A stretch of 64,000 nucleotides of DNA from a phage. Shown here one piece after another: positions 6,336 to 43,304 of the stretch (the first letter of the stretch is position 1; each line of letters starts with the position of its first letter). The translations under genes were made by a program, and so were the position numbers. The notes under the pieces are model-generated. The model did not search any database. It worked only from the letters and a program-made list of their open reading frames with translations, and was not told the DNA's origin. Where the stretch lies: the sequence record PX880099.1, one strand, 5' to 3'.

Positions 6336-6605
6336 TTAATGATTGATGATGTTGATGACGATCTTAGTTTCAACCTTAGCCCAACAGGAATCTGCTTCAT
6401 TAAAACGACTATTTGCAATGTATTCTCCTGCACGAGAACCTGTTAAGCAAACTGCACCTGTATCTGTAGCTAAGTAGTAGTCCCGTTCTTGTTCATTTAC
6501 TTCTGAGTTGTAGTAATAGAAAACAGACATAGGTTCAATTTCAGATAAACGGTATAACTTTGGAACAGGGGATTTCTCGATAAACTCAACAGAAGTTTTA
6601 CTCAT
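6336..6605 (-). CDS. hypothetical protein
   Basis: 89 aa ORF, SD AGGAGAA. Confidence 0.5.
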   Translation of the reverse strand: MSKTSVEFIEKSPVPKLYRLSEIEPMSVFYYYNSEVNEQERDYYLATDTGAVCLTGSRAGEYIANSRFNEADSCWAKVETKIVINIINH

Positions 6606-6799
6606 TTGTTTTCTCCTAGATCTAAACTAATTAAGAAGTCACGAAGGATGATCATTTGTTCTGTAGACAATGATAATACACCTTCTCCATAAATATCACC
6701 AGACCATTCAGCAGTTAGATCTAGTGTACCAGTACCAGGAAACCAATCAATAGTGATCTGATTACCATTAGAGTCAGGTAGTATTTCACTGACTAACAT
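6602..6799 (-). CDS. hypothetical protein
   Basis: Start re-picked to internal ATG (MLVSEIL) which has a strong SD AATAGGAGAG; track start lacks SD. Confidence 0.45.
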   Translation of the reverse strand: MLVSEILPDSNGNQITIDWFPGTGTLDLTAEWSGDIYGEGVLSLSTEQMIILRDFLISLDLGENK

Positions 6800-6915
6800 A
6801 ACACACTCTCCTATTATTGTTCTTGATCTTACGATCATCTACCGATAAGAACAAGTACTTAAATCTCTGTTCTTCGAACATCTAACGATAGAGATTAATC
6901 TATTACATAATCTAT

Positions 6916-6972
6916 ACTCGCTATCGCTCGACCCTTCGGGGTTAGGGTAGCATATTTTTTGAAAAAAGTCAA
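6916..6972. repeat. conserved 57-bp element, copy 1 (ACTCGCTATCGCTCG - hairpin - TAGGGTAGCATATTTTTTGAAAAAAGTCAA)
   Basis: About 88 percent identical to 43085-43141; internal hairpin ACCC-TTCG-GGGT differs in sequence but not position from copy 2. Confidence 0.6.
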
Positions 6973-7292
6973 CACTTATTTTTGGTAAGTAGATAAATCA
7001 ATTGTTCACCTGCTTCTGGTGCATATAGTGCTTTAGTATCGAAGTCAAAGAAGTGAGTGACTCCTGTTACTTTGGATGCCTGAATAGATAATCGTGCAAG
7101 CTTAAGCAGATTATCCATTTCTGCAATCTTTGCACGAAACACTGCACGTGTAGCGTCAAAAGCTGCATGTGGCATGTATTTACGATTTAGACTACTACGT
7201 TTAAATTTACGATAATCTGCAATGATCTTGTTACGTTCTTTGTTCAAGTGCTTTACCAGTGCAGTGTATACATGTGGTTCTTTGTTAGCCAT
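6969..7292 (-). CDS. hypothetical basic protein
   Basis: Start re-picked to ATG (MANKEPH) preceded by GAGGAG. Confidence 0.5.
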   Translation of the reverse strand: MANKEPHVYTALVKHLNKERNKIIADYRKFKRSSLNRKYMPHAAFDATRAVFRAKIAEMDNLLKLARLSIQASKVTGVTHFFDFDTKALYAPEAGEQLIYLLTKNKC

Positions 7293-16251: not shown

Positions 16252-16449
16252 ATGGCAACATTGCACATTGTGGCGAAAGCTGGACAAATCAACGTAGTGG
16301 TAAACGGTTTTACTGAGTTCAGTCACCCCCAGGATGATCATGAAACGGTTTTATCTTTCATTGATTCCCTGTTAGAAATGGGAGTCATTACAGAAGACCA
16401 GCACGCTACAAAATGCAAGCGCGTTAATCAAATTGTAGGAATAGAATAA
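16252..16449 (+). CDS. small early protein
   Basis: 65 aa; start at ATG (MATLHIV); track extension is read-through of the hairpin. Confidence 0.5.
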   Translation: MATLHIVAKAGQINVVVNGFTEFSHPQDDHETVLSFIDSLLEMGVITEDQHATKCKRVNQIVGIE

Positions 16450-16455
16450 AAAGTA

Positions 16456-16515
16456 TTGACAACAAACAACAACCTGATAAGATGTATCACATAGGGCGGC
16501 GGAATGGTCCACCGC
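16456..16515 (+). promoter_or_regulatory. PeSL-like cassette 2
   Basis: TTGACA-16-TAAGAT, hairpin GCGGCGG-AATGGT-CCACCGC, conserved leader CACAACAGAAGAGAGATTATCA. Confidence 0.65.
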
Positions 16516-16540
16516 TCACAACAGAAGAGAGATTATCATC

Positions 16541-16813
16541 ATGGCATCATATAGCGCAACAATGATCGTAGCTGGCACCACTGGTAAACCTATGCGCGGT
16601 GGCGGATCTTTCGCTAATATCAATATTGACGGGCGTTTATCCCTGGACGCAGCGATCACCGTGGCGCGGGAAACATTTAAGAAAGAATGTAAATTCAATA
16701 AACAAGATTATCTCGGTTTTGCTATTGAAAAAACCGCGCGCTTTGTTGATTATAAAAGCCCGAAAATGGTTGACACTACATTAAAAGCGCAAGATGTAGC
16801 GTTTTTGCTTTAA
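16541..16813 (+). CDS. small early protein
   Basis: 90 aa ORF behind PeSL leader. Confidence 0.55.
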   Translation: MASYSATMIVAGTTGKPMRGGGSFANINIDGRLSLDAAITVARETFKKECKFNKQDYLGFAIEKTARFVDYKSPKMVDTTLKAQDVAFLL

Positions 16814-16816
16814 GGC

Positions 16817-16871
16817 TTGACATTAACGAATAATTTGTTAATATGTTACATAAAGCGGGAATAGTTCCCGC
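16817..16871 (+). promoter_or_regulatory. PeSL-like cassette 3
   Basis: TTGACA-16-TAATAT, hairpin GCGGGAA-TAG-TTCCCGC. Confidence 0.65.
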
Positions 16872-16889
16872 TATTTGTAAGGTGGTAGA

Positions 16890-17147
16890 ATGTTTTACAT
16901 CAAATTAAAAGGTCACGTGATCGCGTTCAAAGATAACGCTTTTTACAGATTAGCAAAATATGCGTTAATACATCCCCACTATGTTTATATAAGGGGGCGT
17001 GATGAAATAAATATCTTTGATCAAACAACATGCGAGAACATCGAGATCCGCAAGGTTGGCGTACGTGATTATCGTACATCTTTCTACCCTTGCAAGGATT
17101 CAGCAAGTCTTTTTAAAGTATGCCAATTGTTGAAAAAAGGTGGTTAA
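16890..17147 (+). CDS. small early protein
   Basis: 85 aa ORF. Confidence 0.5.
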   Translation: MFYIKLKGHVIAFKDNAFYRLAKYALIHPHYVYIRGRDEINIFDQTTCENIEIRKVGVRDYRTSFYPCKDSASLFKVCQLLKKGG

Positions 17148-17148
17148 T

Positions 17149-17706
17149 ATGGGCCGCGAATATGTGATCCAGTCTTGGGTAAAACATGAAGCAGATGATC
17201 CGCGCATCATTCCCGATCATCTTATCGATGAATCCACGGGATATAGTGGTGAGCAAATAGGTAACAGATTAGCACGTAGTAACGGCAACGTAAAAGCGCG
17301 TTATGTGCGCCCTGGCTGGCTGGCAAATGGTAACGCTGATTTATCCAGTGCGGAAGATGCGAGCGACGGCGCGAAAGATAATCCTTTGTACAAAGTTGAT
17401 CCAGCTTTTCGTGTCCTGGATGAATACCCCAGCAAGATAGCGGCGCTCGATCAGGCCCTGGAAAGTAAGCGCATCACCTGGACCGCTTACAACATGGCAA
17501 AAAACGTACTTGATGGTAAATTGATTCAAGCTGAAAGAAAATTAGCCAAAATTGCAGCCATAGCCCAGGAGGAAGACGAGGAGACAACGGAAGAGGAAGA
17601 GTACGAAGAGATCCCGCCGTTGTTGTGTGTTGATGCTTTTCCTGATTATCAGCCGACAGAGGAAGAAAAAAGGATCGCACTAGAAAACTTTGAAAATAGT
17701 CTTTGA
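17149..17706 (+). CDS. hypothetical protein with acidic C-terminal tail
   Basis: 185 aa; ATG after AAAGGTGG. Confidence 0.5.
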   Translation: MGREYVIQSWVKHEADDPRIIPDHLIDESTGYSGEQIGNRLARSNGNVKARYVRPGWLANGNADLSSAEDASDGAKDNPLYKVDPAFRVLDEYPSKIAALDQALESKRITWTAYNMAKNVLDGKLIQAERKLAKIAAIAQEEDEETTEEEEYEEIPPLLCVDAFPDYQPTEEEKRIALENFENSL

Positions 17707-17760
17707 CATATCGCCGCCACTGGCATAATATTTACCACGTAGGGCGGCAATGGTGCCGCT
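17704..17760 (+). promoter_or_regulatory. PeSL-like cassette 4
   Basis: TTGACA-17-TAATAT, hairpin GCGGCA-ATGG-TGCCGC. Confidence 0.65.
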
Positions 17761-17788
17761 CATAGTGAAATTATGCAAGAGGCTTACA

Positions 17789-17884
17789 ATGATTAATAAA
17801 GAAAATAGCTTGACGGTTGGAACGATTAACGCTATCATTCTAGCCGTTCCATTTTGGGTTGTAGTAGCGGCTATTATTTTCTAA
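17789..17884 (+). CDS. hydrophobic micro-protein (31 aa)
   Basis: Hand-translated MINKENSLTVGTINAIILAVPFWVVVAAIIF between two PeSLs. Confidence 0.3.
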   Translation: MINKENSLTVGTINAIILAVPFWVVVAAIIF

Positions 17885-17892
17885 AAATATTC

Positions 17893-17953
17893 TTGACAAC
17901 GTTTTTTAATCTGATAAGATGTATCACGTAGGGCGGCGGAATACTTCCCCGCC
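17893..17953 (+). promoter_or_regulatory. PeSL-like cassette 5
   Basis: TTGACA-16-TAAGAT, hairpin GGCGG(C)GGAA-TAC-TTCCCCGCC. Confidence 0.65.
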
Positions 17954-17974
17954 AAAACAAAAAAGGGTAACACA

Positions 17975-18337
17975 ATGAGCAAGCAAATCAATACTATCAT
18001 GTTTAATCTGGTATCTTTCCGCGATGATATGAAAAATTTACCACGTGAAACGGTTGATATTCATGTTTCAGCTTATCGCGCCCTTATTGACATGTTACCG
18101 CTAAAACGTGATCAACATGCCGCTAATATGATGCTTAATGCTATGCTTAAAAAGATGATTCAAACGGATCTTACTCTGGCGTATGAGTATCAAGGGCGCT
18201 TATATGCGACTTACAACAAAGCGGTACCTGGTCTGGGAAGTACCGAAGAGTTGCACGGCTTAAACCTGGATCAAAACACTTGGGATAGTATGCGCCGCGT
18301 TATGGTATGGGCCGAAAGCGGTAAAATTTACGAATAA
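17975..18337 (+). CDS. small early protein
   Basis: 120 aa ORF. Confidence 0.55.
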   Translation: MSKQINTIMFNLVSFRDDMKNLPRETVDIHVSAYRALIDMLPLKRDQHAANMMLNAMLKKMIQTDLTLAYEYQGRLYATYNKAVPGLGSTEELHGLNLDQNTWDSMRRVMVWAESGKIYE

Positions 18338-18343
18338 AAACGG

Positions 18344-18400
18344 TTGACACTGTTTAAACTTCTGGTATAGTTTATCACGTAGGGCGGCAATGGTGCCGCC
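18344..18400 (+). promoter_or_regulatory. PeSL-like cassette 6
   Basis: TTGACA-16-TATAGT, hairpin GGCGGCA-ATGG-TGCCGCC. Confidence 0.65.
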
Positions 18401-18420
18401 AACAATAAAAGGTTAACATC

Positions 18421-18600
18421 ATGGCTATCATTGCAAAAACTGAGATTATAGGTTTAGATTCGATCCTCCTGGCTTATGAGGAAACTTTAAAAATGTATGT
18501 AGTGACCTATGGTGATTATGTGCGTGAATACGAATACATTGATCTTGCTTTCGAATGTTACATTCGCCAGGTCAATAAAGCCTATAATGATTATCGTTAA
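18421..18600 (+). CDS. small early protein (59 aa)
   Basis: Hand-translated MAIIAKTEIIGLDS...; conserved ATGGCTATC start. Confidence 0.45.
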   Translation: MAIIAKTEIIGLDSILLAYEETLKMYVVTYGDYVREYEYIDLAFECYIRQVNKAYNDYR

Positions 18601-18619
18601 AAGTTTTAGTCTTATACTA

Positions 18620-18671
18620 TTGACAATGAGTGATAGTATAAGCATAATAACTTTTATCGGGAATACTTCCC
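18620..18671 (+). promoter_or_regulatory. PeSL-like cassette 7 (shortened hairpin)
   Basis: TTGACA-17-CATAAT, hairpin GGGAA-TAC-TTCCC. Confidence 0.5.
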
Positions 18672-18697
18672 ACTAACCAAAAAGAGAGAGTGACACC

Positions 18698-19063
18698 ATG
18701 GCTATTAATATCAATGTTTCCGCTTATGCTACCCTGGCTAACACGGCTAAAATTGAATTATCCAGCATTGAGGCGGTGCATATTAGCGCCCGTCGCTGGT
18801 TTCAACAGTCCTACGGTAACACATATTTTTCTTTAATGGTTGACGTTGAGATCGGCGGTAAACTGATCGAGGTGGTTAACGTTCCGTTTCAATATGGCTA
18901 TGGTGATCATTTTGATACCGTCGCCCTGGAAGAATTTAGCAAGGTTATCAACCTTGAGGGCAAGGAATTTTCACGCGGCGCGTATCTTTCCCGTTTTTGC
19001 CGTGACAATGGGATCACTGTATACAGTCATGCAAGCGATGTAAAACGTAAAAAAGATTTATAA
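18698..19063 (+). CDS. small early protein
   Basis: 121 aa ORF, MAIN start. Confidence 0.55.
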   Translation: MAININVSAYATLANTAKIELSSIEAVHISARRWFQQSYGNTYFSLMVDVEIGGKLIEVVNVPFQYGYGDHFDTVALEEFSKVINLEGKEFSRGAYLSRFCRDNGITVYSHASDVKRKKDL

Positions 19064-19069
19064 AAAGCA

Positions 19070-19128
19070 TTGACAGCACGAATAAAAAGAGTAAACTGTA
19101 TTACATAGAGAGCGGGAATAGTTCCCGC
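19070..19128 (+). promoter_or_regulatory. PeSL-like cassette 8
   Basis: TTGACA-16-TAAACT, hairpin GCGGGAA-TAG-TTCCCGC. Confidence 0.65.
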
Positions 19129-19152
19129 CTCATTCAAAGAGAGATTATCATC

Positions 19153-19392
19153 ATGGCTATTACTAAAACTTACAACGGTCACAAAAACAAAACTCACTGG
19201 AATGTAAGCCTTTGGATTAATAACGACGAATCATTATATCGGTTGGCGAAAGAATTTATCGCCGCTAATACTAATCGTAATGATGCTGCCCGTGATATGA
19301 TGTTATTCCTGGAACAAACTGGACAAGATAAAACTCCAGACGGTTTCAAGTATAGCACTACAGCGATCCGCGCCGCGATGGTTGGAATGTAA
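19153..19392 (+). CDS. small early protein
   Basis: 79 aa ORF, MAIT start. Confidence 0.55.
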   Translation: MAITKTYNGHKNKTHWNVSLWINNDESLYRLAKEFIAANTNRNDAARDMMLFLEQTGQDKTPDGFKYSTTAIRAAMVGM

Positions 19393-19401
19393 TAAAAACA
19401 G

Positions 19402-19461
19402 TTGACAACGTTTAAAATTAGTGTAAGATGTATCACATAGGGCGGGAAGTGGTTTCCCGCC
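19402..19461 (+). promoter_or_regulatory. PeSL-like cassette 9
   Basis: TTGACA-16-TAAGAT, hairpin GGCGGGAA-GTGGT-TTCCCGCC. Confidence 0.65.
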
Positions 19462-19483
19462 AACAACAGAGAGATTAAAGATT

Positions 19484-19711
19484 ATGGCTATCAATATTGT
19501 TCGCGTATCCGGCACCGTTGGCACTTCCCAGGTTATTGCAGTTGTAACAAACAAAAAGATTAATGATGTATGTGAGATCTTGAATAAGTGGGCTATTGCT
19601 AATTTTGGGGAATATGCAAGCGTCGAGTACATCGAATCCTACCAGGTGCCAACCATCAGCCTGACCGATCTCAACGTTGATCGCCTGTTATGCCTGGATG
19701 AATTAATCTGA
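19484..19711 (+). CDS. small early protein
   Basis: 75 aa ORF, MAIN start. Confidence 0.55.
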   Translation: MAINIVRVSGTVGTSQVIAVVTNKKINDVCEILNKWAIANFGEYASVEYIESYQVPTISLTDLNVDRLLCLDELI

Positions 19712-19720
19712 AAAAGATTG

Positions 19721-19776
19721 TTGACACGGGAAAGAAAAAGAGTAAACTGTATTACGTAGGGCGGCAATAGTGCCGC
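19721..19776 (+). promoter_or_regulatory. PeSL-like cassette 10
   Basis: TTGACA-16-TAAACT, hairpin GCGGCA-ATAG-TGCCGC. Confidence 0.65.
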
Positions 19777-19801
19777 TCACAACAGAAGAGAGATTATCAC
19801 G

Positions 19802-20014
19802 ATGGCTAATATCCGCACACTGTTAAAAAATGCAAGTCAAGTTTTATTTTCTGATCACGATCATTTTAATAAAGATATTACAGGCGTGAAGAATATCAAA
19901 GATGTAAAAAGTGTTATGGGTATATATTGCAATGTTAAACGTGTTGGAACGTTCGGTGATAAAGTATTGTACCAATCAGGTGATTACAATTTTACTTTGA
20001 CGATTATTTCATAA
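19802..20014 (+). CDS. small early protein
   Basis: 70 aa ORF. Confidence 0.55.
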   Translation: MANIRTLLKNASQVLFSDHDHFNKDITGVKNIKDVKSVMGIYCNVKRVGTFGDKVLYQSGDYNFTLTIIS

Positions 20015-20019
20015 AACGC

Positions 20020-20081
20020 TTGCAATACTGCAAAAATAAAGTAAACTGTATTACATCAAGGCGGCGGAATGGTCCACCGCC
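20020..20081 (+). promoter_or_regulatory. PeSL-like cassette 11
   Basis: TTGCAA-16-TAAACT, hairpin GGCGGCGGA-ATGG-TCCACCGCC. Confidence 0.6.
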
Positions 20082-20105
20082 TAACAAAGAGAAGAGGAAA
20101 ATATT

Positions 20106-20273
20106 ATGATCACTTTCGCTACCCGTGAAGCCGCTCGCAACGTTGCACGTAAAGTTAACGCCGCCAACCTGGGCGCTACGCTTAAAGCCCCTGTAAAAGA
20201 TGAATCAGGAAAATGGATCTTCCCTGGTCTACGTCATGCTGACAAGTTAGGTACTTTAAGCCTTAAAAAATAA
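20106..20273 (+). CDS. small early protein (55 aa)
   Basis: Hand-translated MITFATREAARNVARKVNAANLG...; shares its first 16 nt with the gene at 20526. Confidence 0.45.
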   Translation: MITFATREAARNVARKVNAANLGATLKAPVKDESGKWIFPGLRHADKLGTLSLKK

Positions 20274-20276
20274 TCG

Positions 20277-20313
20277 TTGACTTTTCGTTATAGCGCCTTA
20301 TAATGGGCGCTAT
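20277..20313 (+). promoter_or_regulatory. promoter with palindrome overlapping the -10 (operator-like)
   Basis: TTGACT-16-TATAAT; inverted repeat ATAGCGCC-N8-GGCGCTAT spans the -10. Confidence 0.45.
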
Positions 20314-20350
20314 AGAGAAGAGAAACCAGTCACAACAGAGAGAAAATATC

Positions 20351-20512
20351 ATGACCAATAAAGAAAAAGCCATCATTAAAGCACATTATCCACATCTAAC
20401 ATTACGTTTTAAAGCCGATGGATCTGTTATGGCCTCCAGTGGGCGCGGGTATGCTTACGGTTTACTTTACACCGCACAACAAGCGCAAGATCATTTAAAC
20501 GCAGTAAAATAA
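20351..20512 (+). CDS. small early protein (53 aa)
   Basis: ATG (MTNKEKAII) after AGAGAGA; track start is upstream read-through. Confidence 0.45.
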   Translation: MTNKEKAIIKAHYPHLTLRFKADGSVMASSGRGYAYGLLYTAQQAQDHLNAVK

Positions 20513-20525
20513 CAAGGAAACCATT

Positions 20526-20747
20526 ATGATCACTTTCGCTATTGTCGCCGTTGTTGCTGGTCAAGTTTACGTAAATGAGACATTTACTACAGAAGACAAG
20601 GCAGCAGGAGATATAACCGCCGTTTACAATGAGTGCAAGGCAGTAGAAAGGATGTTAGCGCCTTGTATGCTAATGAGTGAACGCCAGGACGGAATAACAG
20701 TATTTACTAACATTGGAACAGGGTACCAAATGGTAGTAACAAAATAA
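20526..20747 (+). CDS. small early protein
   Basis: 73 aa ORF, hydrophobic N-terminus MITFAIVAVVAG. Confidence 0.5.
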   Translation: MITFAIVAVVAGQVYVNETFTTEDKAAGDITAVYNECKAVERMLAPCMLMSERQDGITVFTNIGTGYQMVVTK

Positions 20748-20750
20748 AGC

Positions 20751-20807
20751 TTGACACCGATTTAATTTTTAGTAAACTGTTACAGGTAGGGCGGGAATAG
20801 TTCCCGC
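20751..20807 (+). promoter_or_regulatory. PeSL-like cassette 13
   Basis: TTGACA-16-TAAACT, hairpin GCGGGAA-TAG-TTCCCGC. Confidence 0.65.
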
Positions 20808-20826
20808 TCAAAAAGAGAGAAAGACC

Positions 20827-21180
20827 ATGAAAGCACAAAATGCAATTAAAGAGTACATCCTTGCCGCTATCGATTTTAATGATTACGGTATTACAACCGA
20901 AAAAGAGAAGATCGCGGAATTGATGCGCCGTTTTAATTCCGAGTACTGGTACCCTGATAACCAATCACGTTTTAATTATAGTATTGTTAAAGCACTTGCA
21001 TCATGGTTACAAGGTTTGCCATCAGATATCAATATCGCTTTCGAATATTGGGAAATTGATCGCTTGTTAACATCCTGGGGATACATTAAAGAGAATAGCA
21101 GCGATGATAAAATCCAACGAGAAAGGGAAAATTATTGGCTTTATATTGCAGGCGTGATCCTTGCTTGCTCTTATGAATGA
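20827..21180 (+). CDS. small early protein
   Basis: 117 aa ORF. Confidence 0.55.
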   Translation: MKAQNAIKEYILAAIDFNDYGITTEKEKIAELMRRFNSEYWYPDNQSRFNYSIVKALASWLQGLPSDINIAFEYWEIDRLLTSWGYIKENSSDDKIQRERENYWLYIAGVILACSYE

Positions 21181-21186
21181 TAAACC

Positions 21187-21240
21187 TTGACAATTTTACA
21201 AAACAGTTTAAATTAACAATATAGCGGCAATGGTGCCGCT
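21187..21240 (+). promoter_or_regulatory. PeSL-like cassette 14
   Basis: TTGACA-16-TAAATT, hairpin AGCGGCA-ATGG-TGCCGCT. Confidence 0.6.
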
Positions 21241-21259
21241 CATATGAAGAGGAAACAAA

Positions 21260-21406
21260 ATGAATACATCTAATCGCGCAGAAAAAATTCAATCTTCCAA
21301 GATCCGCAAAGCCTGGAACGAGGAAGTGATCCGCAAAGGCGACAAGCGTAATAAAACAAAGCGCGGGAAGAGTGACAAATATAATTGGATGGATTTAGAG
21401 GATTAA
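21260..21406 (+). CDS. small basic protein (48 aa)
   Basis: Hand-translated MNTSNRAEKIQSSKIRKAWN... Confidence 0.4.
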   Translation: MNTSNRAEKIQSSKIRKAWNEEVIRKGDKRNKTKRGKSDKYNWMDLED

Positions 21407-21414
21407 CATAACAA

Positions 21415-21440
21415 GGGCGCATCAAGCGCCCTTTCTTTTT
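21415..21440 (+). terminator. rho-independent terminator
   Basis: GGGCGC-ATCAA-GCGCCC followed by TTTCTTTTT. Confidence 0.65.
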
Positions 21441-21461
21441 ACATGTAGAGGATAAACAAAA

Positions 21462-21647
21462 ATGACTTTAAACGAGCTTAAAACAGCCTACAACGCAACA
21501 TTAAAAATAGCCGTGCGTTACCGTGATGCGTATGGTTTTATCGCGCAGGGCGTGATCCTGGGCTTTTCTGACGATGGTTTGATCTATGTTGATGCACATC
21601 ACAACAAGGTTAAACCTGAAAACGTCATTAGCATAAAATATCTTTAA
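21462..21647 (+). CDS. small early protein
   Basis: 61 aa ORF. Confidence 0.5.
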   Translation: MTLNELKTAYNATLKIAVRYRDAYGFIAQGVILGFSDDGLIYVDAHHNKVKPENVISIKYL

Positions 21648-21653
21648 AAACGG

Positions 21654-21709
21654 TTGACAGCATAACCAAGTATGATAAGATGTATCACATAGGGCGGGAA
21701 TAGTTCCCG
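21654..21709 (+). promoter_or_regulatory. PeSL-like cassette 15
   Basis: TTGACA-16-TAAGAT, hairpin CGGGAA-TAG-TTCCCG. Confidence 0.6.
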
Positions 21710-21732
21710 ACCACATAAAAGAGAAAAACATT

Positions 21733-21945
21733 ATGACCACTATCACAACAAAACAAGAAAAAATTATTACAGACATTGCCGCAGTAGCCGCTATTGCTAT
21801 TATTGGTACCTACTATGACACCGCGCGACCTTCCTCCTTACATGAGATCGCCGCCGTTGCATCAGTTGGCGTACTGTTTTACGTTGGTAAACGCTATTTA
21901 TCACCAATGATTAACAAGCTGACACCGTGGAAAAATAAAGGTTGA
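21733..21945 (+). CDS. small membrane protein
   Basis: 70 aa, hydrophobic core IAAVAAIAIIGTYY...VGVLFYVG. Confidence 0.5.
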   Translation: MTTITTKQEKIITDIAAVAAIAIIGTYYDTARPSSLHEIAAVASVGVLFYVGKRYLSPMINKLTPWKNKG

Positions 21946-21996
21946 TCCTGTTTTATATTGTGTTATAGTTATCGTGTAGGGCGGCAATGGTGCCGC
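21942..21996 (+). promoter_or_regulatory. PeSL-like cassette 16
   Basis: TTGATC-16-TATAGT, hairpin GCGGCA-ATGG-TGCCGC. Confidence 0.6.
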
Positions 21997-22016
21997 GCCC
22001 CTTTGAGGATGCAATC

Positions 22017-22301
22017 ATGCGTAAAGCTAACACCGTGCTAATGTTTTCCCTGATTAATAATGCCGCTTACTTGTCCAACATGACGCAGGAGGGTAACACA
22101 TTAACGGCAACATTCACCAATAAGCTTGACCGAGTGATCATAATCTCACTGAAAACAGTTAGTAAAGGCTTTTACTCGTTAGCTTATCATTGTATCACTG
22201 ACACCGACGAGACAAGCCAGGACTATAGCGCCCCTTTCCCTGAATCAATGGCACGGGAGATCATCGCCGCCGTTGTAAATGATGGTTTGTTTACTGCATA
22301 A
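22017..22301 (+). CDS. small early protein
   Basis: Start at ATG (MRKANTV); track extension is hairpin read-through. Confidence 0.5.
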   Translation: MRKANTVLMFSLINNAAYLSNMTQEGNTLTATFTNKLDRVIIISLKTVSKGFYSLAYHCITDTDETSQDYSAPFPESMAREIIAAVVNDGLFTA

Positions 22302-22318
22302 AATAATTCAGAAAAGGC

Positions 22319-22375
22319 TTGCAATAATTTTCAGACCGTGTATATTTAATTCATAGGGCGGCGGGAATAGTTTCC
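22319..22375 (+). promoter_or_regulatory. PeSL-like cassette 17 (degenerate hairpin)
   Basis: TTGCAA-16-TATATT, weak GGAA..TTCC stem. Confidence 0.4.
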
Positions 22376-22398
22376 TAAGCAAACGAGAGGATTACACG

Positions 22399-22518
22399 AT
22401 GAGCAAGTATACAGTAGAATACACGGTAGAAAATCCGGCAGTATCCGAAGGTAAAAAGATGACATTTGCCATCAGTATAATCGCTTTCGTTATCACTATC
22501 TTATCAATCATCTTATAA
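22399..22518 (+). CDS. hydrophobic micro-protein (39 aa)
   Basis: Hand-translated MSKYTVEYTVENPAVSEGKKMTFAISIIAFVITILSIIL. Confidence 0.35.
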   Translation: MSKYTVEYTVENPAVSEGKKMTFAISIIAFVITILSIIL

Positions 22519-22528
22519 GGTGCGTACT

Positions 22529-22690
22529 ATGAAAACAACAGACATTATCAAAGAGATCGCCCTTGCCGCTGACGTTGAGATCGAGGAAGTGATCGCGCTC
22601 AACCTTACAGAAAACGATCTGCGCAACTATGAAGCGGAAAGCGTGAAAGCAAGCGGCGCGGTCCTGGCATATAATCCGGCTAACAAGTAA
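22529..22690 (+). CDS. small protein (53 aa)
   Basis: Hand-translated MKTTDIIKEIALAADVEIEEV... Confidence 0.4.
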   Translation: MKTTDIIKEIALAADVEIEEVIALNLTENDLRNYEAESVKASGAVLAYNPANK

Positions 22691-22699
22691 GGGGATAAC

Positions 22700-22810
22700 A
22701 TGAATCCAAAAGATATGCAAGCATGGAAAGGGTACGACGATCTAAGCGCCTTGCGCAATAAGTCAAGCCGTAACCTTAGACGGTTGGAAGCAAAGAAAAA
22801 GAAAAAATAG
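22700..22810 (+). CDS. small basic protein (36 aa)
   Basis: Hand-translated MNPKDMQAWKGYDDLSALRNK...KKKKK. Confidence 0.3.
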   Translation: MNPKDMQAWKGYDDLSALRNKSSRNLRRLEAKKKKK

Positions 22811-22811
22811 T

Positions 22812-22867
22812 TTGACAAGTCCGCCTAGTCTGATAATATGTATCTTGTAGGGCGGCAATGGTGCCGC
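22812..22867 (+). promoter_or_regulatory. PeSL-like cassette 18
   Basis: TTGACA-16-TAATAT, hairpin GCGGCA-ATGG-TGCCGC. Confidence 0.65.
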
Positions 22868-22888
22868 TCACAAGAAGAGAGAAAAATC

Positions 22889-23173
22889 ATGAAAATCACA
22901 AAAAGCCTAACTAATTATGCAGCACGTCGCGGATTATGTTTAACCGTTGAAAACTTAGGGAAAGAAGACTTTTTGTGTTTTTGGGAGCTTGAAAATGATT
23001 GCGAGTGGATGTTTTCTTATTCTATCTGCGAAGATCAAAACGGTTGTTTGTTAACCTGGCGCGGTAATATCTATTTACCGGAAGAAATTAAAGAAGAGTT
23101 ACCAGGTACGATCATGACAGAGAGACAGCTTAAGGAAGTGATCAATTTTGTAGGGCAAAACATTAAAAAATAA
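22889..23173 (+). CDS. small early protein
   Basis: Start at ATG (MKITKSL). Confidence 0.5.
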   Translation: MKITKSLTNYAARRGLCLTVENLGKEDFLCFWELENDCEWMFSYSICEDQNGCLLTWRGNIYLPEEIKEELPGTIMTERQLKEVINFVGQNIKK

Positions 23174-23174
23174 T

Positions 23175-23235
23175 TTGACAGTAGGCAAACAACGTAGTAA
23201 AGTTTATTACATAGAGCGGCGGAATGGTCCACCGC
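23175..23235 (+). promoter_or_regulatory. PeSL-like cassette 19
   Basis: TTGACA-17-TAAAGT, hairpin GCGGCGG-AATGGT-CCACCGC. Confidence 0.6.
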
Positions 23236-23258
23236 TCACAACAGAAGAGAAACAAATC

Positions 23259-23429
23259 ATGATCCCGACTATGTTTTATGTATCGCGCAAAGGTCACAAT
23301 ATTTTTTGGTCTGAAGATTTAAATGAAGCTATGACGTTTGCCCGTGATCGTGTTGCTATCGGTGGCGTTAATATCACCGTGACCGATGAAAACGGCATTG
23401 AATACTATAACGGCGATGATGAAGAGTAA
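23259..23429 (+). CDS. small early protein (56 aa)
   Basis: Start at ATG (MIPTMFYV). Confidence 0.45.
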   Translation: MIPTMFYVSRKGHNIFWSEDLNEAMTFARDRVAIGGVNITVTDENGIEYYNGDDEE

Positions 23430-23473
23430 TCAACAAGGCGGGATTAATTCCGCCTATATTAAAGGGTAATACA

Positions 23474-23611
23474 ATGAAAACTTTCAACGCAACAGCCTCG
23501 ACAATTGGTTATATTATTACAGTGCAAGCCGTGGATCTGGTAGCAGCAGCAAACAAGATTAAAAAGATGATCCCGCCAGGTAGTGAATTTTCCGTTTGGG
23601 AAGTAAAATAA
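23474..23611 (+). CDS. small protein (45 aa)
   Basis: Hand-translated MKTFNATASTIGYIITVQAV... Confidence 0.35.
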   Translation: MKTFNATASTIGYIITVQAVDLVAAANKIKKMIPPGSEFSVWEVK

Positions 23612-23614
23612 ACC

Positions 23615-23676
23615 TTGACAATAATTTGTTATCTGGTAAAGTGTATTACGTAGGGCGGGGCAATGGTGCAACGCCC
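23615..23676 (+). promoter_or_regulatory. PeSL-like cassette 20 (variant hairpin)
   Basis: TTGACA-16-TAAAGT, hairpin GGGCG-N13-CGCCC. Confidence 0.5.
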
Positions 23677-23694
23677 ATTAATGAGGGTAGAATC

Positions 23695-23799
23695 ATGTTA
23701 GAGAAAATTTTCACGGTTGTAATAGTGGGCCTGGCGTTATCGGTTGGAGTGGTTGCAACTATGGCTAACATGATCCTATCTTCCCACGGTATCGGTTAA
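23695..23799 (+). CDS. hydrophobic micro-protein (34 aa)
   Basis: MLEKIFTVVIVGLALSVGVVATMANMILSSHGIG. Confidence 0.35.
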   Translation: MLEKIFTVVIVGLALSVGVVATMANMILSSHGIG

Positions 23800-23809
23800 G
23801 GTGAAACAA

Positions 23810-23971
23810 ATGATCACGAACAAAACAGGCAAAACGGAATTTTTACGCGGCTTACAAGTTGGTAAGCCTGAGATCTGGCATTGCACGAAGTCCGCGCATA
23901 ATGAAATGAAAGATTTCACCGCTACTTTACAACGTGTTAAAATATCTATTACGCAGAAAAAGCCTTATTAG
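23810..23971 (+). CDS. small protein (53 aa)
   Basis: Hand-translated MITNKTGKTEFLRGLQVGKP..., SD AAGGTGA. Confidence 0.4.
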   Translation: MITNKTGKTEFLRGLQVGKPEIWHCTKSAHNEMKDFTATLQRVKISITQKKPY

Positions 23972-24020
23972 TAGTAGAAAACGAGATCCCGCAAACCATT
24001 ATTATTGTCGAGCGTACAGC

Positions 24021-24407
24021 ATGAAAACAGAAATCATTAACGAAATCATCAACGGCTATAAAGAAGCCTTTATTTTTGCTGAATCAGCAAGGGATCATGA
24101 AGGTAATTTTATAGATGACATGACTGATTATGATTTTTCAGATCAAGCCCATCAACGGATCGCCCAGGATGTAACAGCCTTTATTAATGCTAATCTTGCC
24201 GCTATCTCTGAGGCAATGAGCGACGGCGCAACAGCCAACCAGATCGGGAATGATTTACATTTTACCCGTAACGGTCACGGCGTAGGATTTTGGGATCGCC
24301 CTGAAATATACACCACTAACACGGCGAACCGCCTAACAAATGCAGCTAAGTTTATGCCGAACGTGTCGGCTTACATTGGTGAAGATAATTTGATTTATAT
24401 TGAATAA
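24021..24407 (+). CDS. hypothetical protein
   Basis: 128 aa from ATG (MKTEIINEI); weak RBS. Confidence 0.45.
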   Translation: MKTEIINEIINGYKEAFIFAESARDHEGNFIDDMTDYDFSDQAHQRIAQDVTAFINANLAAISEAMSDGATANQIGNDLHFTRNGHGVGFWDRPEIYTTNTANRLTNAAKFMPNVSAYIGEDNLIYIE

Positions 24408-24413
24408 AAAGTA

Positions 24414-24470
24414 TTGACACAGATCGCCAGTGTGCTAATATTTACCACGTAGGGCGGCAATGGTGCCGCC
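24414..24470 (+). promoter_or_regulatory. PeSL-like cassette 21
   Basis: TTGACA-16-TAATAT, hairpin GGCGGCA-ATGG-TGCCGCC. Confidence 0.65.
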
Positions 24471-24488
24471 GATAATGAGGAAAATAAA

Positions 24489-24788
24489 ATGGAAACTATC
24501 GCTATTGTTACCGTAGAAAAACTGGTTGTTGGTGATGTGTTCGCGTTAATGGTGCCTAACAGCAGCAAACTGGGCGCTTATGAAGTGATGGACCATAAAA
24601 ATGAATCATTTGGCGACGGTTGCACAATGGCGGTAAAATCCTTAAAGGATGGAATCATCCGCCAGGCTAACTGGCACAAAGGGAATCAAGTCGGTTTAAT
24701 ATCAGCTAATTTCTTGCCAGAAGAGCAAACGTTAGACCAACTATCAGGCGGTAAGACGTTAGCCGAACTACTGGAAACAGCGATCTAA
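24489..24788 (+). CDS. small early protein
   Basis: 99 aa ORF. Confidence 0.55.
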   Translation: METIAIVTVEKLVVGDVFALMVPNSSKLGAYEVMDHKNESFGDGCTMAVKSLKDGIIRQANWHKGNQVGLISANFLPEEQTLDQLSGGKTLAELLETAI

Positions 24789-24796
24789 TCAACAAA

Positions 24797-24812
24797 GGGG
24801 CGGCAACGCCCC
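24797..24812 (+). other. GNRA-loop hairpin (GGGGCG-GCAA-CGCCCC), intergenic
   Basis: Same design as 25079-25094; no T-tract, so RNA stability or processing element rather than a classical terminator. Confidence 0.45.
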
Positions 24813-24832
24813 ACATCAGAAAGGAAAAGATT

Positions 24833-25069
24833 ATGAGTATTGCAACAGTATTAAACGCCGTTAAAACCGCTGAATCATCCGGCTTGCATGTTGAGCTTAT
24901 AGATCAACCAGGTGGCGATCTCCTTGTCCAGGTTTACCCGCCGAAAGTAGGGGATGATTATTATTGGGCTTATTCTGATACGTTCGAACAAGTAGACACG
25001 AAAGCGATCACGGCTTTTATTTTAAAAGCTATTGAAGAAAATAACTTTCATCATAACATCAATCAATAA
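24833..25069 (+). CDS. small early protein
   Basis: 78 aa ORF, SD AAAGGAAAAG. Confidence 0.55.
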   Translation: MSIATVLNAVKTAESSGLHVELIDQPGGDLLVQVYPPKVGDDYYWAYSDTFEQVDTKAITAFILKAIEENNFHHNINQ

Positions 25070-25078
25070 ACCATAAGC

Positions 25079-25094
25079 GGGGCGGTAACGCCCC
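25079..25094 (+). other. GNRA-loop hairpin (GGGGCG-GTAA-CGCCCC), intergenic
   Basis: Paralogous to 24797-24812. Confidence 0.45.
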
Positions 25095-25123
25095 ATTAAA
25101 CGCAATAGGAAGAGGATAGACGC

Positions 25124-25414
25124 ATGAAAAACATGATCGCAGTAGTTGCCCTAGTTGTTGGTATTAACGCGCCTGTACTGGCTAATGAGTTGTCAGAATC
25201 CATCACGCTAACCGATATCAACGCAATAAACCGGATCGGCGTTAATTATCGCCTATGCCTTGCCGCTAAAACTTTCCAGGACGGCACGACAGAATACCAC
25301 GGATTCGAGGGTATCCGCTGCGGTGAGCTTGCACGCGACCTTAAAGAAGATCCAGACCTTGAGGCCATACCGATGACCGTAAACGGTAAAGCTTACGTAA
25401 ACCGCCAACAATGA
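25124..25414 (+). CDS. secreted small protein (signal peptide)
   Basis: MKNMIAVVALVVGINAPVLA signal-like N-terminus. Confidence 0.55.
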   Translation: MKNMIAVVALVVGINAPVLANELSESITLTDINAINRIGVNYRLCLAAKTFQDGTTEYHGFEGIRCGELARDLKEDPDLEAIPMTVNGKAYVNRQQ

Positions 25415-25545
25415 GAAAGGTAATCATCACAATGGGGATCGTAGTAGCAACGCTGGCGCTTATCCCCTTCATGGTTGAACATGTGCTGATCAGTGTTGTC
25501 CTTGTAGTCAGTGACCTATTGGAAACGGTTGGCACCTGGTTTTAA
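25411..25545 (+). CDS. hydrophobic micro-protein (44 aa)
   Basis: Hand-translated MRKVIITMGIVVATLALIPFMVEHVLISVVLVV..., ATGA-coupled. Confidence 0.35.
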   Translation: MRKVIITMGIVVATLALIPFMVEHVLISVVLVVSDLLETVGTWF

Positions 25546-25719
25546 GATAATAAATAGGGCTTGCAATAGTCCTATTTTTTGTTATACTTATTGAACGGGC
25601 GGCACCTGGGAGCAGGTGAAGATAATCACCGGAAGATCCCGCTATATATCGATAGCTAATACCTATCAAACAACAAAACATCAAAGAGATAAACTATCAA
25701 ATCTTTACAATCCTACCTA

Positions 25720-25778
25720 TTGACACCGGATCACGCTTACATTATTATTTATCACGTAGGGCGGGAATGTTTCCCGCC
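25720..25778 (+). promoter_or_regulatory. PeSL-like cassette 22
   Basis: TTGACA-16/17-TATTAT, perfect hairpin GGCGGGAA-TGT-TTCCCGCC. Confidence 0.65.
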
Positions 25779-25796
25779 TGATTTAGGAGTCATATC

Positions 25797-26030
25797 ATGA
25801 TCGAACAAATTAAAAGCACTAAACCAAATGTTAACGGTAATGTTTCTCACTTTATCGGGGATAATGAAAGAGGTACACCGTACGCCGCCGTAACCGTTCA
25901 ACCGAACGGGGATTATTGGTTTACCGTGTACGGATCTTACTCTTTTGGACGTTCGGCACATGATAAGATCTTGCAAGTGGTTAAGCCTACTGGGAAGAAT
26001 ATCACAGCAGAAAAATTTTATAAAAAATAG
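25797..26030 (+). CDS. small early protein
   Basis: 77 aa ORF, SD AGGAG. Confidence 0.55.
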   Translation: MIEQIKSTKPNVNGNVSHFIGDNERGTPYAAVTVQPNGDYWFTVYGSYSFGRSAHDKILQVVKPTGKNITAEKFYKK

Positions 26031-26108: not shown

Positions 26109-26477
26109 ATGAGCAAATCAGCAATTAAAGCACTTGAAAAAGCACAAGAAGTGATCGCAACGTCAACCACTGGCGCAAAGGTTAATCTCGTTTGTTATCT
26201 GACAGATGAAACTATCCGTAAAAATTGGCGTAATGCTGATTTACTGGCTTGCTTATTGATTAATAGTGTCGCTAATGCTTTCCAGTGTGAAACAGCCGAG
26301 AGCCTGGAGGAAAACTTGTTTGATAATATGGATCAAGCCATTGAAACCTATATACAATCAAACCTGGATAGCTGGAACAGTAAAACATGGCCCGACAATT
26401 TACGCGATACAACTGATCAACTGATCCGCCTTGCCCTGATGGTTGAACGCGATAACGTTTACAACAGCACAAAGTAA
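26109..26477 (+). CDS. small early protein
   Basis: 122 aa ORF, SD AAGAGGAAAA. Confidence 0.55.
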   Translation: MSKSAIKALEKAQEVIATSTTGAKVNLVCYLTDETIRKNWRNADLLACLLINSVANAFQCETAESLEENLFDNMDQAIETYIQSNLDSWNSKTWPDNLRDTTDQLIRLALMVERDNVYNSTK

Positions 26478-26487
26478 GATTATACAA

Positions 26488-26507
26488 GGGCGCACTAAGC
26501 GCCCTTT
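26488..26507 (+). terminator. terminator-like hairpin
   Basis: GGGCGC-ACTAA-GCGCCC followed by TTT. Confidence 0.5.
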
Positions 26508-26542
26508 AACGTAAAGAAATGTAAATAATGCGCTATCCCCTA

Positions 26543-39301: not shown

Positions 39302-39973
39302 ATGAAAAAGTTTGTTGTTTACAGTCGTCTTTCTAAACAGAAAAAAGGTGAGGCACAATATGGTATGGAGAGCCAAGAGAATGATATCCGTTACTTCTTA
39401 GACTCTGTGCCTGATGCGGAAGTTATTGGTCAATTTTCTGAATACTATTCTGGTAAGGGCGATTGGAAGCAACGTAAGGAACTGGTTAAAGCGGTTGAAA
39501 TGTGTAAAGCTACCGGAGCAACTTTATTGGTAGCTAAAGTTGACCGCTTGGGTCGTAACAACGCCTCCGTAGCAACTCTTCTGGAGATGATCGATGTTAA
39601 GATAGCCATCATGCCAGACGCAGATAAAATGGTTATACAGCTTCTATCTGTTCTGGCTGAACAAGAAGTTAGAGGTATTGCTGATCGTATTAAAAAGGGT
39701 CTTGCTGTAGCAAAAAGTAAAGGTGTTTTATTAGGTAGTGCTAATCCTAAAACTGCCGCTGCACGTAGAAAAGGAAAAATGGAATACAACTCTGTTAAAG
39801 CAGACGCTTTTGCAGAGACATTCCGTGAACGCTTGGAGATCCTTAGAGATTTAAATACACCTTACAAAACTATTGCTGAAAAATTCAATAGTAAGAAAAT
39901 AGCAACAGCACGTGGTGGTAAATGGGATGCTAAAACTGTTTCTCGTTTGTGTGCCAGACTTAACATTAAATAG
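39302..39973 (+). CDS. serine recombinase (resolvase/invertase family)
   Basis: 223 aa; VVYSRLSKQ catalytic-serine region, LLVAKVDRLGRN, C-terminal HTH-like segment; ATG after AGGAG. Confidence 0.6.
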   Translation: MKKFVVYSRLSKQKKGEAQYGMESQENDIRYFLDSVPDAEVIGQFSEYYSGKGDWKQRKELVKAVEMCKATGATLLVAKVDRLGRNNASVATLLEMIDVKIAIMPDADKMVIQLLSVLAEQEVRGIADRIKKGLAVAKSKGVLLGSANPKTAAARRKGKMEYNSVKADAFAETFRERLEILRDLNTPYKTIAEKFNSKKIATARGGKWDAKTVSRLCARLNIK

Positions 39974-42982: not shown

Positions 42983-43084
42983 TTAATAGATGGTAGATAG
43001 ATGATCATAGTTTATCTACCTTCACTTACGTTTCATACCTCACTATCGTGAGTAACATGAAACATTATTATATAGAAATCTACT

Positions 43085-43141
43085 ACTCGCTATCGCTCGT
43101 AAACATATGTTTAGGGTACCATACTTTTTTGAAAAAGTCAA
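43085..43141. repeat. conserved 57-bp element, copy 2
   Basis: ACTCGCTATCGCTCG - AAACAT/ATGTTT hairpin - TAGGGTACCATACTTTTTTGAAAAAGTCAA; matches 6916-6972. Confidence 0.6.
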
Positions 43142-43275
43142 TGGTGACTCACCTATCAATTATCTGTTTAAGATAAGTCTTACCTATCAATCTAACTCTT
43201 AACTAGTATTGCACCTATAGTAAGACTATTCCTATAGTTATTAACCCTCTTCTTCTGTAGAATGTAATTAGATCC

Positions 43276-43304
43276 TTGACAAACTCACAAAACTTGTGTT
43301 ACAT
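43276..43304 (+). promoter_or_regulatory. sigma70-type promoter
   Basis: TTGACA-17-TTACAT. Confidence 0.4.

Follow-up and report, generated by a model that had tools for sequence, protein, structure and literature searches.

What kind of site is the 57-bp element that occurs twice, in the same absolute orientation, in the 64-kb stretch of phage DNA analyzed here (the window)? The original prediction placed one copy inside a block of minus-strand genes and the other inside a block of plus-strand genes, and took this to indicate a DNA-level site for recombination, nicking or homing, or a strand-specific small RNA. Both copies are confirmed, at 6916-6972 (copy A) and 43085-43141 (copy B). The element looks like a regulatory cassette rather than a recombination site. 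Judged by its sequence, it is most likely a conserved bacterial-type promoter on the opposite (minus) strand, whose transcripts would begin with a small and very stable hairpin.

The window belongs to a Phapecoctavirus resembling phAPEC8 and ESCO13, which is a member of the Stephanstirmvirinae with a genome of ~150 kb. Identity to Escherichia phage ESCO13 and other Phapecoctavirus genomes is 99.9% for the region containing copy A, and identity to the same group is 97-99% for that containing copy B. Position 5000 of the window corresponds to position 127882 of ESCO13, so the window spans the arbitrary start of the circular ESCO13 record.

The 15-mer ACTCGCTATCGCTCG occurs exactly twice in the window, compared with 0.5 matches expected by chance when up to three mismatches are permitted, and the 25-nucleotide block TAGGGTA...GAAAAA is found there only at the two copies (0 expected by chance). 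When the window was searched with a profile HMM built from 22 family members, the only matches were those at 6972-6910 and 43141-43082 (E ~1e-15); after these, the best E-value exceeds 4. The description of the element as having two copies is thus valid for the window but not for the genome. Beyond the window, ESCO13 has a third copy (copy C) in the opposite orientation, on its plus strand at 56253-56315.

Copies A and B do reside in the minus-strand and plus-strand blocks, but neither is inside a gene: copy A occupies a 169-bp gap between minus-strand genes, and copy B a 360-bp gap between plus-strand genes. Additional palindromes adjoin each copy, as was originally noted. Copy C occupies a gap between divergent genes: on one side is the minus-strand block that ends at gp129, and on the other are gp130-132, plus-strand genes with ten tRNA genes behind them. 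Downstream of copy C are GTACT repeats and long AT-rich palindromes, and the regions upstream of copies A and C are AT-rich. Structural genes follow the tRNA cluster on the same plus strand.

On the minus strand, both copies in the window consist of TTGACT, 17 bp of spacer, TGn-TACCCT, AA, 12-13 variable nucleotides and then CGAGCGATAGCGAG (Table 1). The family shares this layout: TTGACT, a spacer ending in TGn, TACCCT, AA, 10-14 variable nucleotides, and a segment termed the box, CGAGC-(GAUA/GAA/GCA/GGGA)-GCGAG. The -35 hexamer is TTGACT, which agrees with the consensus at five of six positions, in 17 of 23 distinct pattern matches, and the rest have TTGACA, TTGATT or TTTACT. Twenty-two of these matches were accepted as members, and all 22 have a spacer of 17 or 18 bp; the one doubtful match (L176) has 19 bp. 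The center of the spacer varies freely, both among orthologues and among paralogues. TGn is located at -15/-14 and the -10 hexamer is of the TAnnnT type, with TG(C/G/A)TACCCT found in all members.

Table 1. Features of copies A and B and their surroundings, in window coordinates.
Feature	Position	Strand	Remarks
Copy A, putative -35, TTGACT	6967-6972	-	Overlaps TGA stop of the upstream minus-strand gene 6969-7292
Copy A, putative extended -10, TGC TACCCT	6944-6952	-	17 bp from -35; AA next, at 6942-6943
Copy A, variable palindrome ACCCCGAAGGGT (the hairpin of the original prediction)	6931-6942	-	Spans the predicted start, ~6937
Copy A, box CGAGC-GAUA-GCGAG	6917-6930	-	Sense-strand hairpin: two G-C pairs, tandem G.A, closing C-G
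Copy A, structured 5' leader, ~117 nt	6800-6916	-	Stem-loops at ~6861-6895 and 6812-6850
Copy B, putative -35, TTGACT	43136-43141	-	
Copy B, putative extended -10, TGG TACCCT	43113-43121	-	17 bp from -35
Copy B, variable palindrome segment AAACATATGTTTA	43100-43112	-	Spans the predicted start, ~43106
Copy B, box CGAGC-GAUA-GCGAG	43086-43099	-	Extended by pairs UUA/UAG
Copy B, predicted antisense transcript body	42985-43085	-	AU-rich linker; stem-loops at 43030-43063 and 42992-43020
Two direct repeats, CT(C/T)ACCTATCAAT	43148-43191		Just upstream of the copy B -35; kept in phiWec-like phages
Sigma-70-like promoter, TTGACA, 18 bp, TG-n-TACATT	43276-43305	+	Next plus-strand unit; back to back with copy B

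Conserved hexamers at a fixed spacing around a variable spacer are expected of a sigma-70 extended -10 promoter, and the element satisfies the sequence criteria for this class. TACCCT agrees with TATAAT at only three of six positions, although these are the three most important, and a simple consensus scan consequently missed the promoter. However, the total invariance of TACCCT and of the trailing AA asks for more than sigma-70 recognition, which is a point against a plain promoter. Among metagenome members this invariance is partly imposed, because the search patterns required TACCCTA, whereas members derived from BLAST were collected without this requirement. GCTACCCTAA may resemble sigma-S-type -10 regions. 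The distance from the -10 hexamer to the box ranges from 12 to 16 nucleotides across the family, and this variability fits an RNA element better than a DNA site that must be in register with polymerase. We infer both promoter activity and the start site from this arrangement, and the three copies are very probably promoters.

Two readings on the plus strand were rejected. A terminator is not indicated because the palindrome lies 12 nucleotides from the T-run, and the sole terminator-like call (6931-6948) is specific to copy A. A plus-strand promoter was discarded because no -35/-10 pair is conserved on that strand. No tRNA was found in the window at the element, and Rfam 15 covariance models gave no match in the window at their gathering scores and only chance-level matches at relaxed thresholds. 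GenBank records have no promoters annotated at the sites of the element. A search of the promoter and transcriptome literature on phi92, phAPEC8 and the Stephanstirmvirinae returned nothing on the element and no transcript or start-site data.

The element contains two potential hairpins. The one emphasized originally is a palindrome located between the -10 hexamer and the box, spanning about -5 to +8 as counted from the expected start. It does differ in sequence between the copies, as claimed (ACCC-TTCG-GGGT versus AAACATATGTTT), but it is not a covarying hairpin that defines the family. When the variable segments of 19 distinct members were folded and compared with shuffled sequences, a stable structure was found in only six, so the palindrome is not a defining feature. 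Its minimum free energy is -4.0 kcal/mol in copy A and only -0.1 kcal/mol in copy B. The summed fold energy of the 19 segments is better than that of shuffles (P ~0.006), a result driven by a few related copies of type A. Moreover, the palindrome straddles the predicted start, so most of it would not be contiguous in the RNA. The 12-nucleotide start-site palindrome is probably incidental.

The conserved structure is the box, CGAGC-loop-GCGAG, predicted to lie at about +4 to +25 of the transcript. Its loops are GAUA, GGGA, GAA, GCA and, once, GAAU. Folds of single sequences repeatedly produce ((..((loop))..)) together with extra flanking pairs. Under a six-pair model, 89.5% of cells are paired in the 19 distinct sequences, versus 79% in shuffles (none of 500 reached the observed value) and 28-50% when the partners are slid; because the sequences are related, the shuffle control overstates significance, and these counts are supportive rather than conclusive. 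Three pairs exhibit changes on both sides, and the outermost flanking pair tested is retained in all 19 sequences as UG, UA, CG or GU. The flanking extension is unpaired (U/U) in copy A of the window. When the complementary strand is read instead, only 78.9% of cells pair, and pyrimidine mismatches replace the tandem G.A. This drop indicates that the hairpin belongs to the promoter-sense strand, either as transcript or as non-template DNA.

The second of these forms raises the possibility of a transcription-coupled DNA signal, wherein the box would fold as a DNA mini-hairpin on the displaced non-template strand. An R-loop might be stabilized in this way, or the hairpin might be a priming or helicase-loading signal, which would make the three copies origins of replication or sites of single-strand initiation. 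In some copies, the start-site palindrome with its GAA loop would also fold. The core of the box is GCGATAGC, GCGAAGC, GCGCAGC or GCGGGAGC in 18 of 19 members, which corresponds to the motif GCGNAGC/GCGNNAGC; as DNA, this motif has greater stability than its RNA equivalent (reviewed in PMC13037366). These 18 of the 19 distinct boxes fit the mini-hairpin rule GCG-N(1-2)-AGC, and they do so on one strand only; copy A of Tr1 (GCGAATGC) fails. DNA mini-hairpins of this sequence are found at the G4 complementary-strand origin, at ssiA and at the N4 early (virion-polymerase) promoters, and the known examples act in single-stranded DNA (PMC13037366). By contrast, the motif in the element belongs to double-stranded DNA immediately past a sigma-70-type promoter, and the stem flanking it uses many G.U-type pairs.

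A DNA signal would account for the presence of copy B where there is no gene to transcribe, and for palindromes that are whole only in the non-template strand and not in the RNA. The repeats and palindromes following copy C would also be in keeping with such a signal, and the phage encodes a Pol I-type polymerase and a primase/helicase. However, the best-kept flanking pair is U.G or G.U in nine of 19 members, and further wobbles are present, which is typical of RNA and poor for DNA. Also, the start-site palindrome is missing from most members, and GC skew tracks gene orientation only, with no independent signal of an origin. We regard a DNA signal as unlikely, and we lean toward the view that the box acts as RNA. 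We infer a function for the hairpin, and any particular RNA function that might be assigned to it is plausible at best.

The regions downstream of copies A and B differ in their coding content. The structured leader of copy A ends at a Shine-Dalgarno sequence and the ATG of the next minus-strand gene, 6602-6799. The corresponding leader in phi92 folds far better than shuffled sequences (z-score -4.25). Below copy B, no minus-strand ORF is conserved (64 amino acids in the window versus 22 in phiWec190), and a short noncoding antisense RNA is therefore expected. A coding function for copy B was rejected, since the overlapping minus-strand ORF is not conserved whereas the plus-strand gene is. This gene, which ends at 42982, encodes a conserved small membrane protein with 47% identity to its phiWec counterpart. 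The hypothetical protein annotated over copy B in several GenBank records is probably spurious.

The RNA predicted for copy B has structural features of its own. It folds better than shuffled sequences (z-score -2.6), and the outer stem of its first hairpin, GUUUCAU/AUGAAAC in the window, is replaced by UUGC/GCAA in the phiWec lineage, which is a compensatory change. When a 2.5-kb query was used, only ~200 bp around copy B (42992-43198) matched phiWec-like phages, with 82% identity. It is possible, if doubtful, that copy B is chiefly a gene for a small RNA that functions in trans or as a cis-antisense RNA, and that it shares only its promoter type with copies A and C. This proposal is compatible with the explanation that we prefer for the family. 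Along with the conserved segment and the compensatory change, it draws on the lack of a conserved minus-strand ORF and on the antisense placement kept in Tr1 and PD06. However, the RNA past the box is not homologous between genera, and it matches no Rfam family. The last hairpin lacks a U-tract, so the 3' end of the transcript cannot be placed, and the hairpins could equally be the terminator of the plus-strand operon. Indeed, the stem-loop at 42992-43020 is annotated as such a terminator in phage ASO2A. The suggestion of a strand-specific RNA was nearer the mark than that of a DNA-level site, in that the element fits the promoter and 5' end of minus-strand transcripts.

The ACCTATCAAT repeats are located between copy B and the plus-strand promoter at 43276, and are candidate sites for a regulator. 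Related GATAGG/CTATC motifs are found upstream of copy B in Tr1 and PD06.

A search of the genome and its relatives for more copies, which uncovered copy C, also revealed that the element is present across Stephanstirmvirinae relatives. BLAST searches identified the same architecture in phi92 (Justusliebigvirus), in two places in Citrobacter phage Tr1, in Klebsiella phage phi1_175008 and in the phiWec/PsgM04F lineage, and further members came from pattern scans of IMG/VR and metagenomes. The remaining matches from these scans were mostly due to chance, apart from two unrelated families with the same box hairpin, and they are no guide to function here. Phapecoctavirus, phiWec-like phages, Justusliebigvirus, Tr1 and phi1_175008 all retain the element, even though the flanking genes cannot be aligned as DNA.

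The copy number is exactly three per genome: three copies, two co-oriented and one opposite, are also present in PD06 (a phi92-like phage), in a phiWec-like IMG/VR genome and in a Klebsiella-phage-like IMG/VR genome. The copies occupy corresponding positions in four lineages, with A and B in one orientation and C in the other. The gene context of the third copy was established except in the Klebsiella-phage-like IMG/VR genome, and copy C points toward the tRNA cluster in the three lineages in which tRNA genes were found nearby. Copy A also faces downstream genes in phi92, Tr1 and phi1_175008. Copies A and C face their downstream genes across gaps that are unusual for tightly packed operons. 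In the window, Tr1 and PD06, the genes on either side of copy B run antisense to it. An arrangement of like-oriented copies in opposing transcriptional contexts, which was the basis of the original prediction, is therefore real for copy B, across genera, but is not a property of the family.

These comparisons bear on the proposal that the element is a DNA site for the serine recombinase of the phage, or for a nicking or homing enzyme. The recombinase encoded at 39302-39973 is genuine (Pfam Resolvase, 5e-18). Like the element, it is present throughout the Stephanstirmvirinae, although its conservation across the subfamily means that co-occurrence with the element proves nothing. A dyad formed by a T-run and an A-run is also present in the spacer of most copies. 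However, the invariant blocks TTGACT, TGCTACCCTAA and CGAGC..GCGAG are asymmetric and are not reverse complements of one another, and the dyads that do exist vary in sequence and length, which is the opposite of what is found at crossover sites of serine recombinases. If the direct copies A and B recombined, 36 kb would be lost. Copy C is inverted relative to A and B, yet the relatives are collinear.

Relatives with discordant strand calls (WPEC4 and WPEC6) served as a check on rearrangement, and one rearranged relative, WPEC4, was examined. Its breakpoints correspond to window positions ~21845 and ~54601, away from the element, and the 2.5 kb around copy B is intact. A target for recombination, nicking or homing thus finds no support, given blocks without dyad symmetry and a rearranged relative that breaks elsewhere. 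Because a promoter also explains the whole architecture, we consider this the weakest of the alternatives, and most improbable. We take the element to be a promoter-plus-leader-hairpin cassette specific to the Stephanstirmvirinae, and the DNA-level interpretation originally favored to be wrong.

Each genome carries the element three times, and we consider it probable that the copies are such cassettes, with a 5' RNA hairpin in each, and that those in the window act on the minus strand. In this model, host sigma-70 RNA polymerase would bind TTGACT, the 17- or 18-bp spacer and TGnTACCCT, and would initiate ~7 nucleotides downstream, at minus-strand positions close to 6937 and 43106. The transcript would begin with 3-7 free nucleotides followed by the box hairpin, which would comprise 1-4 variable flanking pairs, the closing C-G pair, tandem G.A/A.G, the G-C and C-G pairs, and a GNRA or GNA loop. 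The box would form at the 5' end of the RNA and act there, most likely as a protective or recognition stem-loop. It might resist decay that depends on the 5' end, or it might be a handle for an RNA-binding factor of the phage or host.

The three cassettes would serve different transcription units. Copy A would be an internal promoter of a tightly packed minus-strand operon, with a structured leader of 140 nucleotides that precedes genes running toward a helicase and an anaerobic ribonucleotide reductase. Copy C, in its divergent gap, would be directed at three small genes and the tRNA cluster. Copy B would fire against the plus-strand early operon and yield a noncoding RNA of ~90-125 nucleotides, which would be complementary to the 3' end and terminator region of that operon. 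This RNA may have an antisense or insulating role where two plus-strand units adjoin. That copy B has no gene to serve is a point against the promoter-leader model.

Alternately, the box in the nascent RNA might recruit a factor or act directly on polymerase to cause antitermination. The boxB hairpin of the lambda nut sites and the HK022 put sites are small promoter-proximal RNA hairpins near the start of long phage operons. The element likewise has a small hairpin of five pairs with a GNRA-like (GNRA or GNA) loop just downstream of its promoter, and copies A and C are near the heads of two large converging gene blocks. In addition, the invariance of the sequence across genera suggests specific recognition. 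However, in contrast to nut sites, there is no conserved linear element resembling boxA adjoining the box, the sequences on both sides of which vary, and the stem contains tandem G.A. Moreover, terminator-resistant transcription from copy B would in that case oppose the early operon, an unsupported possibility. Antitermination, which is proposed here by analogy, appears quite unlikely.

A broader proposal is that the three cassettes represent a dedicated control point of the Stephanstirmvirinae infection program, either as origins or priming sites or through a hairpin signal. Such a control point could involve transcription-activated origins or priming sites, with the DNA mini-hairpin on the displaced strand. 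It could instead involve a new hairpin signal for antitermination or RNA marking that is read by a phage protein, in which case the antisense copy B could shut down or insulate the early operon. We consider this proposal rather unlikely. If the box does prove to be a protein-recognized RNA or a DNA mini-hairpin signal, it would constitute a new regulatory mechanism for the Stephanstirmvirinae.

Therapy against pathogenic E. coli is a common reason for isolating Phapecoctavirus and phi92-like phages, and the invariant three-copy cassette marks likely key control points across genera. One is where the DNA-metabolism block begins, another is where the plus-strand block with the tRNA genes begins, and the third is an antisense unit in the early region. 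The cassette sequences provide defined targets for mutation, or compact promoter-plus-leader parts for reuse.

The predicted cassette resembles several known systems. The T5 early promoters are an example, from virulent coliphages, of sigma-70 extended -10 promoters in which the initially transcribed region is conserved. The element resembles promoters of this type in having a consensus-like -35 hexamer, a 17- or 18-bp spacer, TGn, TAnnnT and a conserved sequence just past the start. However, its -10 hexamer, always TACCCT with AA after it, is GC-rich and bears little resemblance to TATAAT, its downstream box is a defined hairpin, and it is found in only three copies at positions that are fixed across genera.

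The hairpin at the 5' end of ompA mRNA exemplifies the 5'-terminal stem-loops that stabilize bacterial and phage mRNAs. The hairpin of the element similarly begins a few nucleotides from the predicted 5' end. Unlike ompA-type structures, it would be preceded by a single-stranded tail of 3-7 nucleotides, which is at or beyond the length usually considered protective, and its sequence does not vary, although structure alone would not demand this.

Among named composites, the nearest to the element are the PeSLs (promoter-early stem-loops) of T4-like phages, which are composites of promoters and terminators that are numerous, concentrate in hyperplastic regions and are linked to gene shuffling (PMC2839356, PMC4122927). 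Like a PeSL, the element is a short composite of a sigma-70-like promoter and a stem-loop that is repeated in the genome of a large virulent myovirus. In contrast to PeSLs, its stem-loop is downstream of the start, lacks a U-tract and does not resemble a terminator, and its three copies are syntenic and have no associated indels. Because two defining features of PeSLs (a terminator-like stem-loop and many copies in plastic regions) are lacking, we do not assign the element to this class.

A second and unrelated class of promoters is found at 16.4-25.8 kb of the window, where a scan for strong sigma-70 matches detected at least 11 copies. These have TTGACA, a spacer of 16 or 17 bp and (TG)nTAAnAT, followed ~11 nucleotides later by the stem-loop GGGCGGC-AATGGT-GCCGCC, a Shine-Dalgarno sequence and a small ORF. 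In both classes, the stem begins 11-14 nucleotides past the -10 hexamer, at about +4 to +7. Because the second class also has a stem-loop at about +4, the combination of a promoter with a 5' hairpin appears to be a general design in this phage, which favors the idea that its transcription units are built with a promoter-proximal RNA stem-loop. This second class is a closer analogue of PeSLs than is the element.

Two pairs of direct repeats fall in the interval between the promoter of copy B, a copy of the 57-bp promoter-and-hairpin element, and the plus-strand promoter that diverges from it at 43276. Of these, the CT(C/T)ACCTATCAAT pair is retained in phiWec-like phages, and in Tr1 and PD06, GATAGG/CTATC motifs are found upstream of copy B. 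These upstream repeats and motifs could be a binding site for a regulator. A hypothetical protein spanning copy B appears in several GenBank records (phAPEC8_0059, ASO2A_058). Because of the conservation pattern of the promoter and hairpin, this predicted coding sequence is probably spurious.

Downstream of copy C, the third copy of the element, is a 260-nucleotide untranslated stretch. Within it are the motif GTACT/GTACAG, repeated approximately eight times, the palindrome GATCTATAGATC and a long inverted repeat rich in A and T (AGATTAATAATTATT...AATAATTATTAGATCT). The stretch looks like a possible origin.

Another repeated promoter cassette is present in at least 11 copies. Each consists of an A-rich upstream region, TTGACA, a spacer of 16 or 17 nucleotides and (TG)nTAAnAT, after which come the stem-loop nTATCACGTAGGGCGGCAATGGTGCCGCC, a Shine-Dalgarno sequence and a short ORF. 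This cassette is a closer match than the reported 57-bp element to the promoter-early stem-loop (PeSL) cassettes of T4-like phages.

The sequence TATTAGAATGAATCTA-TACCCTATCCCCCCC(A/T)A-CGAGCGAAGCGAG occurs as a divergent pair, with about 100 bp between its members, in small viral contigs that form an unrelated group. Besides the three listed in the table, this group includes about 25 more IMG/VR contigs of 4-20 kb. Its box hairpin (CGAGC-loop-GCGAG) and TACCCTA are identical to those of the phage element, but, unlike that element, the pair has no sigma-70-like -35 sequence. The likeness may be coincidental, because the search pattern itself selected for the combination of box hairpin and TACCCTA.

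The widespread bacterial repeat GTCATTCC-GAGCGAAGCGAG-GAATC, found at metagenome loci such as L171, L100, L141, L143, L130 and L132, has a core identical to that of the box hairpin (tandem G.A, GC stem and GAA/GAUA loop) and an outer stem of 5 bp. It belongs to the REP-like elements of bacteria from soil and fresh water.

In WPEC4, approximately 33 kb runs in the orientation opposite to that in the window and in every other relative, and WPEC6 probably shares this arrangement. The inverted segment adjoins about 6.6 kb without a match, in which many tiny ORFs are called on mixed strands. The arrangement could reflect a true inversion or an error of assembly; its breakpoints do not coincide with the reported element.

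The serine recombinase is retained throughout Stephanstirmvirinae, at identities from 100% down to 55%, and has relatives of 30-38% identity in ICP1-like and other Vibrio and Shewanella phages of about 130 kb. It occurs in strictly lytic phages.

Positions of the features discussed (window coordinates unless another record is named)
Feature	Position	Strand
CT(C/T)ACCTATCAAT (twice) and CCTATAGT (twice)	43148-43160, 43179-43191, 43214-43221, 43231-43238	
Hypothetical protein over copy B	43048-43176	plus
Untranslated stretch downstream of copy C	ESCO13 56299-56529 (L017, part of ESCO13, 26300-26530); outside window	
Second promoter cassette, region	16446-25809	plus
Second promoter cassette, starts near	16456, 16817, 17703, 17893, 18344, 21654, 22812, 23175, 23615, 24414, 25720	plus
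Divergent pair, small viral contigs	L023 2024-2161; L031 1675-1813; L026 4971-5109	
Apparent inversion in WPEC4 (L021, PV682947.1 15000-64999)	about 21845-54601	
Serine recombinase	39302-39973
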